Assembly (NCBI GenBank): GCA_001787005.1
Contig: MFUV01000004.1
Coordinates: 105,770-169,769 of the forward strand
DNA from: Candidatus Nomurabacteria bacterium RIFCSPLOWO2_01_FULL_39_18
Lineage (GTDB): Bacteria; Patescibacteriota; Minisyncoccia; Phycocordibacterales; UBA9973
Direction of reading: 5' to 3'
Length of the DNA stretch: 64,000 nucleotides
Shown: positions 3,033-41,858 of the stretch, piece after piece
Position numbering within the stretch: the stretch's first letter is position 1
How the letters are laid out: each line of letters opens with the position of its first letter
Notes under the pieces: generated by a model
What the model saw: the letters and a program-made list of their open reading frames with translations, nothing else
What the model was told of the DNA's origin: nothing
Database searches by the model: none
Program-made: the position numbers and the translations under genes

Positions 3033-4458
3033 CAAATACATAAAAGGTATGGCAACCCTGGAGCTACTCATAGCTTTCGTGATACTTATACTATGCACCA
3101 GCGCCGTCATTATGGTTGCCTTCGGCAATCAGTCTTTCGCGGTTGATTCAGAAACGAACAATGAAGCTATCCAAAAAGCGCAGAAAGCACTGGAAGATAC
3201 AAGAGCTCTCTCTAGGCAGGATTTTGATTTAGTAGTTTCTGACCCAAATCCCATCCAAGATGGTATCTATACTAAACAAATTATAGTTGATCCATTTGCA
3301 GCCACGGAATGCAGTAGGCAGATCGAGTCTAAAATCACATGGGATACTGATATGAATCAGCCTCAAAGTATCAACCTATTCAGTCGTGTTGGAGATATTC
3401 CGGAGGCATTAGACTTGGGGGGAGACTGCTCGGCATCGCCACCCGGACCAGGATTCACTGTAGGTGGAGGACTGAATATGGGAGGTGCTAAAACAAATGG
3501 TTTAGATGTGTTAAATAAAAAAGTTTTCATCGCTCTTCAAGATCCTCCCGGGTTAGCATATGTAGACGCCACAAACTATGCGGCTCCCGTTCAAATAATG
3601 AATAGTTACGATGTTGGTTCTGAAGTAAATGATGTAGATATTGCCCGTGATCTAGATACCGGAGAAATCTATGCATATGTTGCTAGAGAAACAAATACCA
3701 ATCAGCTTCAAATTATTGATGTGACAGATATTAATAACCCGATTTTTGTTAGAAATGTAGATTTACCAGAAGTTGGAGGTAGTTCCGAACCGGAAGGATA
3801 CCGAGTTTATTATTATAAAAATAGACTCTATATGACCACCAAAGAAACTGCAGGTCCAGAACTCCATATATTCGATGCTTCGGACCCAGTAACTTCTTTC
3901 CCAAAGTTTGGAATAAAAGAATTAAACAGAACAGTGAATGATCTTGTGGTAGTTGATCAAAATATTGGTGGCACGAATTATTCTGTCGCTTACATGGTGG
4001 CCGATTCAGATCTAAAAGAGATTGGAGTATTTGATGTTACTACTGCAGGAACTGCAAACGAAATGTTTTCACTGAATATGACAGGTGGTGCCGATGCTTA
4101 TTCTTTATTTTTCTCTTCTACATCCAAACTTTTGTATGTAGGACGACAGGCGAACGCTGGTCAAGAATTTTTTGCATATGATGCATCTAACTCCTTTTCC
4201 ACACTTATTGAAAGAGCAAAGAGAGAAGTTGGTGAACATCCTATCGGTCTTCGTATTGCTGGTGCCTATGCATACATGGTTACAAATGATAGTAATGAAG
4301 ATTTTCAAACTTACAATGCTGATCCAGCGACTGGTCTTTCACATATTCGTACTTATAATGCTTCAAATAAAGGCACAGGCATAGATTACGAAGATCAGTT
4401 TATTTATGAAACTATGGAACAAGGAAGCGAAACTCTTCAAATCTACTATGCTCCCTAG
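3010..4458 (+). CDS. large pilin-like protein with LVIVD-repeat (beta-propeller-like) C-terminal domain; putative pilus tip adhesin
   Basis: Leader MKAQSTGNKYIKG|MATLELLIAFVIL is prepilin-like; repeated YAYVA..LQIIDVTD / YSVAYMVADSDLKEIGVFDVT / AYAYMVTND motifs typical of LVIVD repeats. Confidence 0.6.
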   Translation: MKAQSTGNKYIKGMATLELLIAFVILILCTSAVIMVAFGNQSFAVDSETNNEAIQKAQKALEDTRALSRQDFDLVVSDPNPIQDGIYTKQIIVDPFAATECSRQIESKITWDTDMNQPQSINLFSRVGDIPEALDLGGDCSASPPGPGFTVGGGLNMGGAKTNGLDVLNKKVFIALQDPPGLAYVDATNYAAPVQIMNSYDVGSEVNDVDIARDLDTGEIYAYVARETNTNQLQIIDVTDINNPIFVRNVDLPEVGGSSEPEGYRVYYYKNRLYMTTKETAGPELHIFDASDPVTSFPKFGIKELNRTVNDLVVVDQNIGGTNYSVAYMVADSDLKEIGVFDVTTAGTANEMFSLNMTGGADAYSLFFSSTSKLLYVGRQANAGQEFFAYDASNSFSTLIERAKREVGEHPIGLRIAGAYAYMVTNDSNEDFQTYNADPATGLSHIRTYNASNKGTGIDYEDQFIYETMEQGSETLQIYYAP

Positions 4459-6043: not shown

Positions 6044-6065
6044 CATCTACGCCATGGCGTAGATG
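6044..6065. repeat. palindrome A copy 1 (CATCTACGCCATGGCGTAGATG)
   Basis: Perfect self-complementary 20-22-mer; identical copies at 9979-9998 and 10393-10412. Confidence 0.9.
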
Positions 6066-9978: not shown

Positions 9979-9998
9979 ATCTACGCCATGGCGTAGAT
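9979..9998. repeat. palindrome A copy 2 (ATCTACGCCATGGCGTAGAT)
   Basis: Perfect palindrome exactly between the stop of the 9998-10366 gene and the promoter region of the lipase gene. Confidence 0.9.
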
Positions 9999-10366
9999 TA
10001 GTTTGTATATGATTTAGCTAACTTAAATGTTTTAAATTCTTTCTGCAGGCCAATTCTTTTCAGATAAGCAAGAAAATCCACCGGCAGTGGCGAAGGCCCA
10101 ACCCAGACACTTTTCTGAATCATGACAAAATCAAAATTCTTAAGCTGTCGACGAAACCAATCTCGCTCTTTTTTCCTCGTATACGGAACATCGTACATTA
10201 AAAGTAGGTTCTTTGGCGCATCTTTTTTAAAATCAGAAACAAAAGAACGAAGATACAGCCGTTTGTTTTTTTTAGTATTTTTAAATTTTTTCGAATCACT
10301 GAAACTTGGCAAACCTAGAATATTCACCGGCACACCTTTGTAATAAAATTTCTTTCTTCTCGTCAT
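9998..10366 (-). CDS. small basic protein with Cas2/PaaX_C-like domain (paralog of 29178-29717 C-terminal half)
   Basis: LLLMYDVPYTRKKERDWFRRQLKNFDFVMIQKSVWVGP aligns with WRLVMYDLPIRFKKARDAFRFKLKDLGFFQFQKSAWIYP of the 179-aa paralog; the beta-YDV...R.Q.SV pattern resembles Cas2/VapD. Confidence 0.45.
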   Translation of the reverse strand: MTRRKKFYYKGVPVNILGLPSFSDSKKFKNTKKNKRLYLRSFVSDFKKDAPKNLLLMYDVPYTRKKERDWFRRQLKNFDFVMIQKSVWVGPSPLPVDFLAYLKRIGLQKEFKTFKLAKSYTN

Positions 10367-10392: not shown

Positions 10393-10412
10393 ATCTACGC
10401 CATGGCGTAGAT
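10393..10412. repeat. palindrome A copy 3 in the divergent region between the Cas2-like gene and recG
   Basis: Identical 20-mer ATCTACGCCATGGCGTAGAT. Confidence 0.9.
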
Positions 10413-10446: not shown

Positions 10447-12666
10447 GTGGAACTTAGCGATAGACTTGAAATAAAATTCCGCTTAGATGTAAACCAAAAA
10501 AGGGCTTTAAATAGGCTCAAACTTTTCTCTATTGCCGACCTTTTGTACCACTTTCCTGTCAGATATTCTCATATTAGTGAAATAAAACCCATTAGCCAGT
10601 TAGTGGCGGGAGAATTTGCGACGGTCTATGGAAGATTTTGGAGTCCGGACATAAAAAGAGGATACAAAAGCAAAGTTTTGCGAGCAGAAGGAGAAGTGAT
10701 AGACGAAACTGGAAAAATAAAAGTTGTCTGGTTTAATCAAGCTTACATCGCGAAAATGATACATTCTGGACAATTCGTAGAACTAACCGGAAAAGTGATG
10801 GAAAGTAAAAGGGGCAAATATCTAGCAAACCCTGAATTCAAAAAGATTGATTTACTGCCGATTGATACACATGATTCTCTATTTAATTTTGAAAAGAAAA
10901 AACAGAGCGAAGTCTTTGGTTTTCCTGTTTATGCAGAGACCCGTGGCATAACTTCTAAATGGTTCTACCATGCAATAGAGAAAATATTGCGAGAAAAAAC
11001 GTTGGATAGAATAGGAGACTACATTCCAGAGGACATTCTTAAAAAATACAACCTCCCCAGCCTGAGGACCGCGCTCATTTGGATTCACAAGCCGAAAAAT
11101 TCGCGAGACGCTGAAAGCGCCAAGAAAAGATTCGCTTTCGAAGAAGTTTTTTGCATTCAGCTGGAGCGCCAGCATGACAAGTTTGAATACAAAAAAAATA
11201 AATCTTTTCAGATTATTCCAGATGAGAAAAACGTTAAGAAATTTTTAGAACGTTTTCCTTTCGAACCAACAAATTCCCAAAAGAAATCTATCGAGGTAGT
11301 CTTGGACGATATGGCGAAGAGTTTCCCCATGTCCCGCCTCCTAGAGGGTGATGTCGGATCTGGAAAGACAGCCGTTGCGGCCACAGCAAGCTATGTGGCA
11401 GTACAACAACGTCCCAATGGACAGACTTTTGGCAACTTACAAGTCGCTTACATGGCACCCACGGAGATCCTGGCGGCACAACACTTCGAATCTTTCATAG
11501 AATATTTTAAATACCTACCGATTAACATCGGGCTCATCACCGGATCAGGTTGCAGAAAATTCCCTTCTAAAGTTAACCCCCTCGGATGGACGAATATATC
11601 CCGCGCGCAGCTTTTGAAATGGGTAGCAAATGGAGAAATTCCCATATTGATAGGCACGCATGCTTTGATCCAAAAAACGGTTAAATTTAAAAATCTGGCG
11701 CTATGCGTGGTGGATGAACAGCACAGATTCGGTACAGCGCAGAGAAGAAAGTTGGTCAGGAAGGATGCAAAAGGAAATATGAGCGCTCCACACTTGCTCT
11801 CGATGACAGCTACCCCTATCCCCCGCACCTTGGCGCTGACCATCTATGGCGACCTAGACCTCTCTCTCCTCGATGAAATGCCTGCTGGCAGAAAGAAAAT
11901 AATAACAGAGATAATCACGCTGAAGGAGCGCGAAGAAACTTATGAAAAAGTCAGACAAGAATTAAAAGCTGGCAGACAGCTCTATGTGATCTGCCCGAGA
12001 ATTTTCGAACCGGATGAAGAGTACCCCTACCCGACCTCCCCCTATATAGGGGGAGGTGCCAAAGGCAGAGGGGGTATAGAAATGAAAGCCGTTACCACTG
12101 AAGCAAAACGACTCAAAAAAGAAGTTTTCAGAGAATACGAAATAGGTGTACTGCACAGCAAGATGAGCAAGGAAAAAAAAGAAAAAGTGATGCAGGAATT
12201 TACGGAAGGCAAAATAAATATTCTCTGCGCCACATCAGTGGTGGAAGTAGGAGTAAATGTGCCGAATGCCACCCTTATAATAATAGAAGGGGCGGAACGA
12301 TTCGGCTTAGCCCAGCTTCACCAGCTTCGCGGACGAGTGCTGAGGAGCACGCATCAAGCGTATTGTTACATCTTCGCTGACGCCAAAAGCGACAAAACTA
12401 TCGCCAGGTTAAAAGCTCTTAAAACCGCCCAAAACGGCTTCGAGCTCGCAGAGCTAGACCTCTCGCTCCGCGGTGCCGGAGAGCTCGGAGGAACGAAACA
12501 ATGGGGCATCACCGACCTCGGCATGGAAGCAATTAAAAATATAAAAATGGTTGAAGCCGCCCGCACCGAAGCTGTCCGCTTGATAGGAGAAGACCCAGAA
12601 CTCACTAAATATCCCCTACTGAAACAGAAAGTCCATCAAAAAGCTGGGGAATTTCATTTTGAATAA
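10447..12666 (+). CDS. recG: ATP-dependent DNA helicase RecG (GTG start)
   Basis: Wedge/OB N-terminus, DVGSGKT Walker A, DEQHRFG, helicase C motifs; TATAAT 9 nt upstream of the GTG. Confidence 0.9.
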   Translation: MELSDRLEIKFRLDVNQKRALNRLKLFSIADLLYHFPVRYSHISEIKPISQLVAGEFATVYGRFWSPDIKRGYKSKVLRAEGEVIDETGKIKVVWFNQAYIAKMIHSGQFVELTGKVMESKRGKYLANPEFKKIDLLPIDTHDSLFNFEKKKQSEVFGFPVYAETRGITSKWFYHAIEKILREKTLDRIGDYIPEDILKKYNLPSLRTALIWIHKPKNSRDAESAKKRFAFEEVFCIQLERQHDKFEYKKNKSFQIIPDEKNVKKFLERFPFEPTNSQKKSIEVVLDDMAKSFPMSRLLEGDVGSGKTAVAATASYVAVQQRPNGQTFGNLQVAYMAPTEILAAQHFESFIEYFKYLPINIGLITGSGCRKFPSKVNPLGWTNISRAQLLKWVANGEIPILIGTHALIQKTVKFKNLALCVVDEQHRFGTAQRRKLVRKDAKGNMSAPHLLSMTATPIPRTLALTIYGDLDLSLLDEMPAGRKKIITEIITLKEREETYEKVRQELKAGRQLYVICPRIFEPDEEYPYPTSPYIGGGAKGRGGIEMKAVTTEAKRLKKEVFREYEIGVLHSKMSKEKKEKVMQEFTEGKINILCATSVVEVGVNVPNATLIIIEGAERFGLAQLHQLRGRVLRSTHQAYCYIFADAKSDKTIARLKALKTAQNGFELAELDLSLRGAGELGGTKQWGITDLGMEAIKNIKMVEAARTEAVRLIGEDPELTKYPLLKQKVHQKAGEFHFE
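12022..12077. repeat. nested palindromic element inserted in-frame in recG
   Basis: TACCCCTACCCGACCTCCCCCTATATAGGGGGAGG...AGGGGGTA; encodes EYPYPTSPYIGGGAKGRGGIE; near-identical copy at 39869-39920. Confidence 0.85.
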
Positions 12667-31252: not shown

Positions 31253-31262
31253 TGCTTTCTTG

Positions 31263-31308
31263 GCAGATAGAGCTTTAGACTCTAGATAGAGTCTAAAGCT
31301 CTATCTGC
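31263..31308. repeat. 46-nt hairpin GCAGATAGAGCTTTAGACTC-TAGATA-GAGTCTAAAGCTCTATCTGC
   Basis: 20-bp perfect stem between the rplO stop and the secY start; related copy at 35747-35791. Confidence 0.85.
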
Positions 31309-32564: not shown

Positions 32565-32583
32565 TTTTTTTTATTTTCTCCTC

Positions 32584-32638
32584 AAGGTCTTGCCTTGGAA
32601 TCCCTAAAGGCAAGACCTTTTCCCGAAAATTTATACGG
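32584..32638. repeat. hairpin AAGGTCTTGCCTT-N9-AAGGCAAGACCTT + TTCCCGAAAATTTA
   Basis: 13-bp perfect stem; overlaps the rplF stop; second copy at 41805-41858. Confidence 0.8.
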
Positions 32639-35737: not shown

Positions 35738-35746
35738 GATTTTTTA

Positions 35747-35791
35747 CAGATAGAGTTTTAGACTCTAGATAGAGGCTAAACCTCTATCTGC
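35747..35791. repeat. hairpin CAGATAGAGTTTTAGACTC-TAGATA-GAGGCTAAACCTCTATCTG (variant copy)
   Basis: Same family as 31263-31308; between the rplP stop and the rpmC start. Confidence 0.8.
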
Positions 35792-38024: not shown

Positions 38025-38130
38025 GGTGCATCTCCTTTCATCTACAACCTTAAAAGAAATATATATATAAAGCAAGATCTGGGTGTGAATAAAAATACAC
38101 AGGCGTTGCCTGTGTATTGGTTATTTGTGA

Positions 38131-38589: not shown

Positions 38590-38739
38590 GCGAAACCTCC
38601 TTTCACTTAGGAGCTTAAAAGAAATATATATATAAAGCAAGTTCTGGGTGTGGAGAAATACAACCCCTCCAAACCTCCCCTTATCAGGGGAGGTACAAAA
38701 AATCCCCCTGACAAGGGGGACTTAGGGGGTTATTTTTTT

Positions 38740-39868: not shown

Positions 39869-39920
39869 TACCCCCTCCTTTCTCCTCCCCCTATATAGGG
39901 GGAGGCTGGGTAGGGGTATT
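39869..39920. repeat. nested palindromic element, intergenic copy (rplD stop / rplW RBS)
   Basis: TACCCCTACCCAGCCTCCCCCTATATAGGGGGAGG..AGGGGGTA (minus sense); supplies AAAGGAGG upstream of the rplW ATG; matches the recG insert. Confidence 0.85.
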
Positions 39921-40575
39921 ACCCTCTCGATTCTAAGAATTTTGCACTTTCTGTGGAGTTTTCTATTATGAGATATTTGTAATTTAAAACGTCTAATGGA
40001 TTTATGTTTTTAATAAATATTATATCTAGGATCGGGATATTTCTAAAGCTCTTTTCTGTGTTTTTATTTCGTTCATACAAAGCCAATAAAATTTTTGGTT
40101 TTCTCGTTTCTAGATTTTTCAAGTTCCCCGCCCTTGCCAGATTTTTCATCACTTCTACCGCAAACTTTGTATTTATTCTTGACATTTCAAGTGAATCAAT
40201 AAAAAGTATTTCGTTGTCTTTCAGCTTACGAGATAGGACTGAGAAGAGCGCCTGCGCGCGCATTTTCTTGGAGATTTTTCTTTTATAATTCTTCTCGGCA
40301 AGCGGACCATGAGTTACGCCTCCGCCAACCCAGATGGGGCTCCTCGAAGAGCCGTGTCGCGCTCGTCCTGTGCCCTTTTGCTTCCAGGGCTTTCTGCCTC
40401 CGCCTCGGACTTCCCCACGGCCTTTCGTGTCAGCAGTGCCTGCGCGCTTGTTACTGCGCATTCCTTCTACCACCTGGTGCACTAAGTCACTGCGCCATTT
40501 AGCACCAAAAACTTTCGGGGACAGTGTGATTGTTCCTGATTCTTTTCCTTTTTGATTATGTATTTTTGCTTCCAT
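39919..40575 (-). CDS. rplD: 50S ribosomal protein L4
   Basis: 218 aa; TKGRGEVRGGGRKPWKQKGTGRAR. Confidence 0.9.
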   Translation of the reverse strand: MEAKIHNQKGKESGTITLSPKVFGAKWRSDLVHQVVEGMRSNKRAGTADTKGRGEVRGGGRKPWKQKGTGRARHGSSRSPIWVGGGVTHGPLAEKNYKRKISKKMRAQALFSVLSRKLKDNEILFIDSLEMSRINTKFAVEVMKNLARAGNLKNLETRKPKILLALYERNKNTEKSFRNIPILDIIFIKNINPLDVLNYKYLIIENSTESAKFLESRG

Positions 40576-41767: not shown

Positions 41768-41804
41768 GGATTTATTTAAAAGGACAATTTGGATTTTTCT
41801 CCCC

Positions 41805-41858
41805 AAGGTCTTGCCTTAAGGAACCCAAAGGCAAGACCTTTTCCCGAAAAATTTAACC
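41805..41858. repeat. hairpin AAGGTCTTGCCTT-N10-AAGGCAAGACCTT + TTCCCGAAAAATTTA (copy 2)
   Basis: Overlaps the tuf stop codon; identical stems to 32584-32638. Confidence 0.8.

Follow-up and report, generated by a model that had tools for sequence, protein, structure and literature searches.

The recG gene of this bacterium harbours, in frame, a 55-nt palindromic element that belongs to a previously undescribed repeat family of an already known, RPE/REP-like kind. Patescibacteria (CPR) have tiny, streamlined genomes that are usually considered repeat-poor, and the window analysed here (the whole stretch of DNA, 64 kb in length) is 89% coding. In our interpretation the elements are probably non-autonomous selfish DNA of the REP/RPE kind, defined by its structure: a family of short palindromes, repeated in low copy number and confined to Patescibacteria of the Nomurabacteria/Paceibacteria type.

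The host gene (10447–12666, plus strand) encodes a predicted 739-aa protein with RecG_wedge, DEAD (residues 276–462), Helicase_C (554–634) and RecG_dom3_C domains. A nested palindrome of about 56 nt had been noticed here in the preliminary description; the palindrome is confirmed, but its right limit lies at 12076 instead of 12077, so that the element, of the long, coding-type form, spans 12022–12076 on the plus strand (55 nt). Its left terminal arm, TACCCCT (12022–12028, plus strand), is a 7-nt terminal inverted repeat and pairs with the right arm GGGGGTA (12070–12076, plus strand) to form an outer stem. Enclosed by this stem on the same strand are a perfect 22-nt core palindrome, CCTCCCCCTATATAGGGGGAGG (12035–12056; 9–10-bp stem, 4-nt loop), one of whose three frames always contains TAG, and a second mini-hairpin, GCC-AAA-GGC (12058–12066), hereafter the variable module 2. 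The latter marks the 55-nt form and grows to about 21 nt in 67-nt forms.

The other copy in the window, of the short, intergenic-type form (39869–39918, minus strand; 50 nt), fills the spacer between two ribosomal protein genes of the same strand: the stop codon (39919–39921) of rplD (L4; 39919–40575) abuts it directly, and the ATG of rplW (L23; 39590–39859) follows 9 nt after it. Read along the minus, coding strand, this copy is in the forward orientation; on the plus strand the two point in opposite directions and make up an inverted repeat with 35-nt arms that are 94% complementary. It had been called near-identical to the recG copy and placed at 39869–39920. The left arm is indeed shared and the core palindrome (39884–39905, minus strand) matches CCTCCCCCTATATAGGGGGAGG exactly, but the 3′ modules (GTGCCAAAGGCAGA in recG, GAGAAAGGA in the spacer) and the size classes differ, and the end at 39920 had to be corrected to 39918, the exact limits being TA...TA in both copies. 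The core occurs exactly twice in the window, 100 dinucleotide shuffles yielded no chance match to it even when 3 mismatches were allowed, and the family profile detected no third copy within the 64 kb. Both copies are predicted to fold into an outer stem around the 9–10-bp core hairpin, with energies of −32.6 to −34.8 kcal/mol and z-scores of −3.5 to −3.9 relative to shuffled sequences.

A further proposal, that the spacer copy supplies the Shine-Dalgarno (SD) sequence of rplW, finds no support, because SD-like motifs of any kind precede only 9 of the 75 genes in the window, because the GGAGG in question is 14 nt away from the ATG and base-paired in the hairpin prediction, and because elements upstream of start codons in relatives occur in either orientation.

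The recG copy codes for YPYPTSPYIGGGAKGRGG and supplies the first base of the Ile codon that follows (an example of the junction peptide in the predicted protein is IFEPDEEYPYPTSPYIGGGAK) and occupies RecG residues 526–544. It introduces neither a stop codon nor a frameshift into the 739-aa open reading frame, as the claim of an unbroken frame had held. Comparison with orthologues likewise bears out the suspicion that this segment is lineage-specific: among 121 RecG orthologues (74–99% identity), 88 possess the short loop FEPDPEKELALNVKSA, matching that of Thermotoga maritima RecG, and only 7 carry an element of the window type. Since most of these close orthologues retain the short Thermotoga-like loop, the insertion is derived, not ancestral. 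The inserted residues align to a gap in the T. maritima structure (PDB ID: 1GM5), between a strand and a helix, and in an AlphaFold model of only moderate quality (mean pLDDT 61.5) residues 519–547 are predicted to form coil (pLDDT 25–30). The earlier wording of an inter-domain loop is only approximate; the site is the loop that follows the first strand of the second RecA-like (Helicase_C) domain.

Palindromes can mislead assemblers, and an assembly or chimera artefact was accordingly considered for the recG insertion. This explanation is refuted and retains a negligible probability, because the exact 739-aa protein occurs on 9 independent contigs from different samples; an allele of 97.3% identity carries the identical element, the spacer copy recurs unchanged in 17 loci from independent samples, and diverged orthologues from unrelated studies have the insertion at the same codon. 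The recG site is occupied by the same form in one further locus (L050) and by a 67-nt variant in three (L104, L148 and L163), and the rplD–rplW site is also filled in other species (L078, L209).

The repeat extends well beyond the two copies from which it was first recognized. Pooling of Patescibacteria genomes and metagenomes (at least 48 delimited copies in the genome_contigs set and at least 99 in the metagenome_contigs set before pooling) yielded at least 117 non-redundant full copies; of the 117 listed, 52 lie inside conserved genes and 46 are noncoding. All were retrieved with an exact-core pattern that forces 20 positions, which inflates their apparent conservation. Every full copy listed resides on a Patescibacteria-type contig, and unit length among them is about 48–69 nt, with 50-, 55- and 67-nt forms. 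Candidate members from other phyla (MAGs labelled Lysobacteraceae, Cloacimonadota, Armatimonadota, Hyphomicrobiaceae and Thermomicrobiales) were rejected, as they share only the core hairpin, set within different repeats. No match to the element was found in Rfam, and a search of viral contigs gave 0 matches, so that a phage vector is not supported. With 2 copies in 64 kb, the density is at most about 1 per 30 kb, and units are single; 1.24 Mb of unselected flanking DNA contained 0 additional canonical copies and 14 variant or decayed ones.

Hosts identified through Pfam comprise RecG, RecJ, PolA, UvrC, DnaX, FtsK, RNase H, PurH, Fmt, RsmA and MnmA; to these are added an HI0933-like protein, IleS, MurI and DUF4430, the gene names including rnhA and murI, as well as an RluA-like gene. 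Seven of the 15 host gene families have a role in replication, repair or segregation. Several insertion sites are linkers, namely those between the DHHA1 and OB domains of RecJ, the MGS and AICARFT domains of PurH, the N and C domains of Fmt and the M and C domains of MnmA. In at least 10 species a copy occupies a small gene's conserved leader, preceded by a promoter with DnaA-box-like and LexA-box-like sequences; this locus is absent from the 64-kb window.

Such a distribution bears on the idea that the recG insert arose locally, by slippage or template switching in a hypervariable loop, the spacer copy being coincidental or transferred secondarily. Variability in the RecG loop is striking: relatives carry at least 3 other, unrelated hairpin inserts at this position (types B–D, the window element being type A), at least 4 in total, and for types B–D no second copy was found within ±10 kb. 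All insert types share the flank (L/I)EMKAVT. Type A itself, however, is a 50–55-nt sequence that recurs in many genomes, at more than 15 loci unrelated to one another, which a local origin cannot explain; for this element the census refutes it, and we regard it as extremely improbable.

Size class and coding context are tightly associated. A length equal to 1 modulo 3 is found in 44 of the 52 interior-coding copies listed versus 14 of the 46 noncoding ones (Fisher p = 4.6e-8), the 55- and 67-nt forms being dominant in coding DNA and the 50-nt form in spacers (p = 5e-8). In each orientation, the coding 55-nt copies listed (32 in total; 16 forward, 16 reverse) all use one stop-free, Gly/Pro-rich frame, none of the listed coding copies is in the TAG-containing frame, and translation of the two orientations in silico gives different peptides. 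No single rule of inserted length covers both the 55-nt copies and the in-frame 50-nt copies, and the way in which the frame is kept is therefore partly idiosyncratic. From frame and stop-codon avoidance, the insert is presumably translated together with its host protein.

The frame rules also weigh on another possibility, namely that the element is present in DNA but excised from the mRNA or bypassed by the ribosome, in the manner reported for the GC-rich palindromic 'byp' inserts of some yeast mitochondria. The predicted mRNA hairpin is very stable (−33 to −35 kcal/mol), and the insert is GC-rich in an AT-rich genome (40% GC), like the mitochondrial cases. Skipping would, however, abolish the need for frame and stop-codon constraints, yet 44 of the 52 listed coding copies are frame-compatible, none reads through the TAG frame and the 55-nt copies keep to one Gly/Pro-rich frame per orientation (32 of 32 listed). 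We therefore consider an untranslated element very unlikely.

What is maintained in the family is the nucleic acid rather than the peptide. In 39 distinct copies helix 1 (the outer stem) is paired in 98.2% of cells, and the terminal inverted repeats follow TACCCCY / RGGGGTA. Module-2 stems vary in sequence while keeping their self-complementarity, changes that preserve the hairpin are seen both in module 2 and in the apical core, and at pair 39–43 a C-G is compensated by T-A in 6 of 39 sequences. Formal covariation is weak in the 55-nt set, with one compensatory pair and a value that 16 of 500 shuffles reach. Third-codon positions of the element are nearly invariant, and its pattern-free positions are 78–98% identical at 10 orthologous sites, where the flanks reach 64–79% (80 of 83 pairs; Wilcoxon p = 0.002). 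The use of both orientations, the near-invariance of third positions, the excess over the flanks and the self-complementarity of module 2 are the grounds for this statement.

Conservation of this kind raises the question of whether the hairpin is a signal that benefits the host and is kept by selection, its location in genes reflecting function, instead of selfish DNA. The hairpin might, for instance, be bound or processed by a protein of the nucleoid, of recombination or of uptake, or it might act in the mRNA, where its structure would modulate expression or the speed of translation at domain boundaries. In addition to outdoing its coding flanks at the 10 orthologous sites, the element has near-invariant synonymous positions and hairpin-preserving changes in module 2 and the apical core; furthermore, 7 of 15 host families serve to replicate, repair or segregate DNA, one copy recurs behind the DnaA-box-like/LexA-box-like promoter in at least 10 species, and several inserts fall exactly at domain linkers. 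Linkers, however, also simply tolerate inserts; 88 of 121 close RecG orthologues do without the element and unrelated hairpins occupy the same RecG loop in other lineages. Moreover, orientation and size class vary at a given site, decayed copies exist, the copy number (2 in 64 kb) is far below that of known uptake signals, and the repair-gene bias of REPs in other phyla is accompanied by no demonstrated function (PMC3733652). Taken together, a host-beneficial signal seems to us unlikely.

Selfish DNA is the reading we retain, and the turnover of the family is consistent with it. At one and the same site, different species may carry the 50-, 55- or 67-nt form or the reversed orientation, and variant and decayed copies are present. 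Many copies nevertheless occupy orthologous sites across species, which implies long vertical persistence and fits old insertions better than recent activity. Exchange of surrounding gene segments is seen in RecG: a protein with the insert (P0064) and one without it (P0098) are identical over residues 121–494 and diverge from about 25 residues before the insert to the C-terminus, so that a recombination tract moves the insert between RecGs of 96% identity. Similarly, the recG of locus L258 differs from that of the window at 60 positions, 59 of which are in the first 267 nt. In a neighbour-joining tree of RecG and in a nearest-neighbour table, insert-bearing alleles are interspersed with empty ones, on short branches and with evident recombination.

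A more speculative reading, to which we give little credence, is that the hairpin is a selected signal promoting homologous exchange, as a cruciform or hairpin start of recombination or gene conversion, or serving in recognition of incoming DNA in bacteria that depend on uptake. Were this so, the concentration in genome-maintenance genes would have a reason, and hairpin cassettes with their flanking codons could 'home' between alleles without encoding an endonuclease. This would account for the excess conservation, for the shared (L/I)EMKAVT flank, for the recombination tract between RecGs of 96% identity and for the way in which size classes replace one another at fixed sites.

Under the preferred reading of a selfish repeat, the 7-nt inverted termini TACCCCY...RGGGGTA form the outer stem around a GC-rich core hairpin and a variable second hairpin, and the element would land, or be copied, into many places. 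In so compact a genome most landings would fall inside genes, where only harmless ones would survive: those that keep the frame, avoid the TAG frame as well as the Arg/Leu/Cys-rich frames, and are located in surface loops or domain linkers. Transcribed and translated with its host gene, the element would yield a flexible, Pro/Gly-rich loop of 18–22 residues, such as that predicted for RecG. As the 55- and 67-nt variants satisfy these coding demands, they would prevail in genes, with the 50-nt variant surviving mostly in spacers. Resident copies would then be inherited vertically and be passed to related lineages when the gene segment around them recombines homologously, and their uniformity may result from copy-to-copy gene conversion or re-insertion, or from selection on the hairpin.

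Mobility of the family is inferred, and no transposition event was seen. For this element we found no two closely related genomes of which one is filled and the other cleanly empty at the site, nor any empty site within the same species, as 17 of 17 rplD–rplW loci and all RecG contigs are filled. Among the 117 copies listed there is no target-site duplication outside the TA...TA ends. Duplication of a TA or NN target was rejected as inconsistent across copies and with frame-keeping, since the added length, if the terminal TA were a duplication, would break the frame for 55-nt copies. The 1.8 Mb of fetched loci revealed neither a transposase nor a longer parent element flanked by these termini; five candidates for an autonomous parent had termini bracketing 0.3–3.5 kb, and the three inspected proved to be decayed copies beside intact ones.

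Patescibacteria thus carry, inside essential genes, a family of palindromic elements of a sort best known until now from Rickettsia and a few REP-rich bacteria, and gene-invading palindromes now extend to a second, unrelated lineage with reduced genomes. The elements account for part of the length heterogeneity of CPR proteins and for odd Gly/Pro-rich loops; they can confuse alignment, domain calling and assembly, and could act as lineage markers. The many diverged genomes with shared occupied sites constitute a data set for studying their spread, their preference for replication and repair genes, and the uniformity of their DNA.

Several known systems share traits with this family. GC-rich palindromic clusters, double-hairpin elements and 'byp' inserts have spread in the AT-rich, compact genomes of fungal mitochondria, including their protein-coding genes; the double-hairpin architecture is common to both, but the mitochondrial hosts are eukaryotic organelles and the frame rules of the window family point to translation. 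DNA uptake sequences (DUS/USS) are motifs of 9–12 nt that occur about once per kb and are biased towards genome-maintenance genes. This bias is shared (7 of 15 host families), whereas a density of about 1 per 30 kb or lower is not. Bacterial MITEs (Correia/NEMIS, ERIC, Nezha) are non-autonomous, possess terminal inverted repeats, form RNA hairpins and are occasionally fused to ORFs in frame (PMC10969869). The window family resembles them in these respects, its terminal inverted repeats being TACCCCY / RGGGGTA, but is far shorter than the typical 100–400 bp and has yielded neither a target-site duplication nor, in the 1.8 Mb of loci, a parent IS with matching termini. We take the TA at both ends of the element to resemble the TA target of Correia elements.

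Intragenic REPs of the GTAG/CGTC superfamilies (Di Nocera et al. 2013), which include RPE-4 and RPE-6 of Rickettsia conorii and repeats of Opitutus terrae and Thauera, are stem-loops that are mostly extragenic but sometimes lie entirely within ORFs, where they encode about 20–30 residues; their hosts are markedly biased towards genes for replication and repair (UvrABCD, RecBCD, Pol I) and for pseudouridine synthases, and Patescibacteria are not among the phyla reported to contain tagged REPs (PMC3733652). Our family is likewise a short stem-loop repeat found in ORFs and has the same host bias, its hosts including recG, recJ, polA, uvrC, dnaX, ftsK, rnhA and the RluA-like gene. Unlike REPs, however, it has no unpaired GTAG/CGTC tag at the foot of the stem and no CGTC: a CTAC/GTAG occurs within the arm (element positions 7–10, position 7 being T or C) in 21 of 39 distinct 55-nt copies, but 4–5 nt from the core stem and on the side opposite to that of canonical REPs. 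Its unit consists of two hairpins within an outer stem instead of a single 20–40-bp stem-loop or a head-to-head dimer, and it is of low copy number, in single units without BIME-like inverted dimers. REPs are further associated with a RAYT (Y1/HUH) transposase gene that the repeats flank; in the fetched loci of our family no longer unit with flanking termini was found.

The closest parallel is that drawn in the preliminary description, the Rickettsia palindromic elements, and it holds for a CPR genome insofar as a stable hairpin repeat is found in frame in about 15 unrelated gene families. RPE-1 to RPE-10 are repeated palindromes of about 100–150 bp that reside, in a reduced genome, both in intergenic regions and in frame in unrelated housekeeping genes, adding a conserved peptide where the fold permits it, and no transposase is known for them (PMC10969869). 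Both families combine a stable palindromic hairpin with in-frame copies in unrelated genes, a conserved peptide and fold-compatible sites. RPEs, however, belong to Alphaproteobacteria, whereas the repeats described here, which we set apart by description, are 48–69 nt long, GC-rich and found in Patescibacteria; they consist of an outer stem with two hairpins, fall into discrete size classes that sort between coding and noncoding DNA, and are predicted to be translated in both orientations, in a single frame each.

The palindromic repeat of the preliminary description is present in the window at two places: with 3 mismatches allowed, the 22-nt perfect palindrome CCTCCCCCTATATAGGGGGAGG occurs only at 12035-12056 and 39884-39905, and shuffled sequence gave no match to this core. 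Arms included, from TA to TA, the copy in recG spans 12022-12076 (55 nt) and the one in the rplD-rplW spacer 39869-39918 (50 nt), in opposite orientation on the + strand. The two have in common the core and the left arm TACCCCTACCC(3 nt)C, both terminate in GGGGGTA, and they are distinguished by the 3' module (GTGCCAAAGGCAGA in recG vs GAGAAAGGA in the spacer). Both are predicted to fold as an outer stem around the core hairpin, to which the 55-nt form adds a 3-bp mini-hairpin, with folding energies of -32.6 to -34.8 kcal/mol (z about -3.5 to -3.9). A family profile HMM found no third copy in the window, and no Rfam family matches the element.

The 55-nt copy lies within a 739-aa ORF (10447-12666, + strand) carrying RecG_wedge, DEAD, Helicase_C and RecG_dom3_C domains and matching Thermotoga maritima RecG (1GM5; E = 1.6e-114); translated in silico, it reads without a stop as YPYPTSPYIGGGAKGRGG. 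In a MAFFT alignment of this protein and its best 120 homologues (74-99% identity, 714-816 aa, labelled Nomurabacteria, Paceibacterota or Minisyncoccia), 88 of the 121 RecGs possess a short loop, ...CPRIFEPDPEKELALNVKSAVAEAKRL, which agrees with Thermotoga ...ESDKLNVKSAVEMYEYL, the additional residues of the window protein falling opposite a gap. The element itself is found in 7/121 (the query, P0001, P0002, P0032, P0046, P0061 and, in a frame-scrambled version, P0020). The alignment marks the segment in recG as an insertion that is derived and, as the preliminary description had supposed, lineage-specific. It sits in the loop between the first β-strand and the first helix of the second RecA-like domain, and the Pfam Helicase_C match resumes after it, at profile position 32. 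AlphaFold, in a model whose mean pLDDT of 61.5 indicates moderate quality, predicts residues 519-547 as coil (pLDDT 25-30), flanked by a strand (512-515) and a helix (549-560). Nor is the segment an artefact, a concern raised earlier: the exact protein was found on 9 contigs from different samples, a RecG allele of 97.3% identity has an identical element, and the spacer copy is identical in 17 loci. Just upstream of recG, a 122-aa ORF (9998-10366, minus strand) with matches to PaaX_M / Cas2-like domains (E = 1e-12 and 1e-6) is flanked by two of the window's three occurrences (6045-6064, 9979-9998 and 10393-10412) of ATCTACGCCATGGCGTAGAT, a perfect 20-nt palindrome that includes CTAC/GTAG.

A scan of genomes, one per species, with CTCCCCCTANNTAGGGGGAG returned at least 118 loci, and an independent scan of metagenomes with CCTCCCCCTANNTAGGGGGAGG at least 119 loci and at least 99 further delimited units; pooled and de-duplicated, these amount to at least 117 copies, which upholds the initial view of a repeat family. 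Among the matches listed, the entire unit is conserved in Patescibacteria-labelled MAGs, and other phyla possess the core hairpin only, within different repeats. Copies fall into discrete length classes of 50 nt, 55 nt and 64-69 nt, the last with an enlarged second hairpin. Per-genome copy number appears to be low: there are 2 copies in the 64 kb of the window, several MAGs have at least 3, and 1.24 Mb of fetched flanking DNA yielded 14 copies that are variant or decayed but no additional canonical one. Decayed copies with mutated cores lie near intact ones (L184:4534-4590; L153:3106-3145 and 3580-3616; L202:586-625), one of them being a second copy ~1 kb upstream inside the same ftsK ORF. In unrelated phyla the core hairpin CTCCCCCTAnnTAGGGGGAG recurs at many places of a genome, within quite different repeat units, namely in a Lysobacteraceae-labelled MAG (L001, L003, L004, L041, L065), Cloacimonadota/Armatimonadota (L008, L015-L018 and others), Hyphomicrobiaceae (L031, L069, L072) and Thermomicrobiales (L033, L073, L087), which could reflect convergence on a stable C5/G5 hairpin or a deeper link.

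Among the matches listed, 52 of the 117 copies reside well within long ORFs. Besides the loop of the second RecA-like domain of RecG, the host genes, identified with Pfam, accommodate the element between DHHA1 and OB domains (RecJ), between MGS and AICARFT (PurH), between N and C domains (Fmt), between M and C domains (MnmA), directly ahead of the RNase-H-like domain (UvrC) and inside the 5'-3' exonuclease domain (PolA); further hosts are FtsK, RsmA, RNase H, DnaX, an HI0933-like flavoprotein, IleS, MurI and a DUF4430 protein. In CarA and an RluA-like protein, copies affect the C-terminal tail. Seven of 15 host families act on DNA, an enrichment of roughly p = 1e-5 to 4e-3 against our own rough baseline of ~6% of genes in such genomes (~15% when length-adjusted); the same bias has been reported for intragenic REPs in other phyla (PMC3733652).

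Lengths of 1 mod 3 (55 or 67 nt) characterize 44/52 interior-coding vs 14/46 noncoding copies (Fisher p = 4.6e-8), the noncoding ones being mostly 50 nt. A TAG codon (CCT CCC CCT ANN TAG) is present in every case in one of the three frames. Two frames remain open in each orientation, and the 55-nt coding copies use a single one of them: the 16 forward copies are all read as TAC CCC..., which gives YP[YH]PASPY[VI]GGGAKGGGG, and the 16 reverse copies all give TPSAxGTSPYVGGGxVGV, these 32 copies representing about 9 independent host sites. The peptide thus differs with orientation, and both are tolerated; the open frames left unused would encode Arg/Leu/Cys/Trp-rich peptides. The rule is not absolute, since 50-nt copies sit in frame in MurI, IleS and DUF4430, as LPLxRGR or PPFSSPYVGGG. 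From these frame, length and stop constraints we infer that the insert is probably translated.

The spacer copy occupies the whole rplD-rplW spacer (minus strand), starting right after the rplD stop and leaving 9 nt to the rplW ATG. The proposal that it supplies the rplW Shine-Dalgarno sequence is not supported, as its GGAGG is 14 nt from the ATG and paired in the predicted hairpin. In the window, which is 40% GC and about 89% coding, SD-like motifs are scarce: of 75 crudely called genes, only 9 have GGAG, GAGG or AGGA in the 25 nt ahead of the start. Among the matches listed, 65 copies are non-interior, and 25 of these stop 6-16 nt ahead of a start codon, in either orientation; such proximity fits the filling of very short spacers better than a conserved ribosome-binding role. 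The ribosomal-protein region contains two more 52-59-nt palindrome families (31257-31308 and 35740-35791; 32574-32632 and 41795-41853), their pairs 85-88% identical and folding at -21 to -36 kcal/mol. Both of these families fill short spacers between minus-strand genes, one of them between tuf and rpsJ, and, unlike the element, have no copy inside a gene. Immediately downstream of rplB, in a region of short ORFs only, a 62-nt direct repeat with an AT-rich centre (38032-38093 and 38597-38658) is 87% identical over copies 565 nt apart.

The DNA of the element is itself well conserved. Across 39 distinct 55-nt sequences mean column identity is 92% and third-codon positions of the arms are almost invariant. 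At 10 multi-species sites, counting only positions outside those set by the search pattern, the element is 78-98% identical vs 64-79% in the flanking 2 x 200 nt (element above flank in 80/83 pairs; per-site Wilcoxon p = 0.002), with residual ascertainment bias because retrieval took intact-core copies only. Covariation is modest at pair 39-43 (C-G to T-A in 6 sequences, 16/500 shuffles as high); 67-nt forms carry unrelated yet self-complementary module-2 stems (GTCCCGA/TCGGGAC, GTTCTTCAC/GTGAAGAAC, GCCCAA/TTGGGC), and variant copies an apical stem CTTA..TAAG. From one species to another, a single site may be occupied by the 50-, the 55- or the 67-nt form or by a reversed copy (recG, rsmA, purH, fmt, uvrC, the secY upstream region, and the leader of a gene for a 70-aa protein), which points to inter-copy replacement or gene conversion at occupied sites rather than slow in-place drift. 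The last of these genes, which is absent from the window, encodes a conserved ~70-aa protein (MSQxQYLKMLEKEIQKINKKIDLKIL...) and has a 49-55-nt copy in its leader in at least 10 species (L131:~810-1142, L136, L194, L126, L138, L142, L160, L217, L218, L083, L019, L053). Upstream of the element there lies TTATCCACA, a DnaA-box sequence, followed by a promoter-like TTGACA...TATACT region that includes GTGAACGCTCGTTCAC, a LexA-box-type palindrome (GAAC-N4-GTTC).

The same RecG loop (approximately query residues 520-545) harbours at least three unrelated inserts in close relatives (types B, C and D, plus others; L119:3037-5349, L120:10001-12343, L121:10001-12331). Types B-D are 95-140 nt long, with 54-57% GC vs 39-44% in the gene, and form long branched hairpins (-56 to -73 kcal/mol) whose stem is capped by two hairpins, a design as in the element; no second copies of these unrelated inserts were found within +/-10 kb. 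To the right of the insert, all insert-bearing alleles have (L/I)E(M/L)K(A/S)VT where empty ones have LNVKSAVA, and by overall similarity the insert-bearing alleles are dispersed among the empty ones. P0064, with a 33-aa insert, and the empty P0098 are 96% identical, with residues 121-494 identical and divergence running from ~25 residues ahead of the insert to the C-terminus; at least the insert of P0064 therefore travelled with a homologous-recombination tract. Between the window recG and L258, 59 of 60 nucleotide differences lie in the first 267 nt (10447-10713 vs L258:53-319), a similar tract at the 5' end. Upstream of recG there are, at ~2 kb, a reverse-transcriptase (RVT_1) ORF at L121:6984-8006 and, in the other locus, a serine recombinase + HTH_Tnp_1 ORF at L119:3-1858, so that mobile-element genes adjoin insert-bearing recG in 2/3 loci examined.

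The best-supported reading is that of a REP/RPE-like selfish palindromic element. Within genes, its copies would survive only if they keep the frame, are benign and fall in loops, and would then be translated into a flexible loop; they would pass vertically, spread via homologous recombination, and be kept uniform through conversion or re-insertion. No target duplication was found at delimited copies, no parent element in the fetched loci, and no viral carrier among viral contigs. A role of the element as a functional signal is a less probable alternative. A full-text literature search retrieved no publication that describes elements like these from Patescibacteria/CPR. For Rickettsia, in-frame palindromic repeats are established in the form of the RPEs (PMC10969869), and in-frame GTAG/CGTC-tagged REPs, which likewise prefer repair genes, occur in R. 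conorii, Opitutus and Thauera (PMC3733652). The element differs from REPs in tag and copy number, and from Rickettsia RPEs in size and taxon; the Patescibacteria family is therefore an analogue of these systems, not a member.
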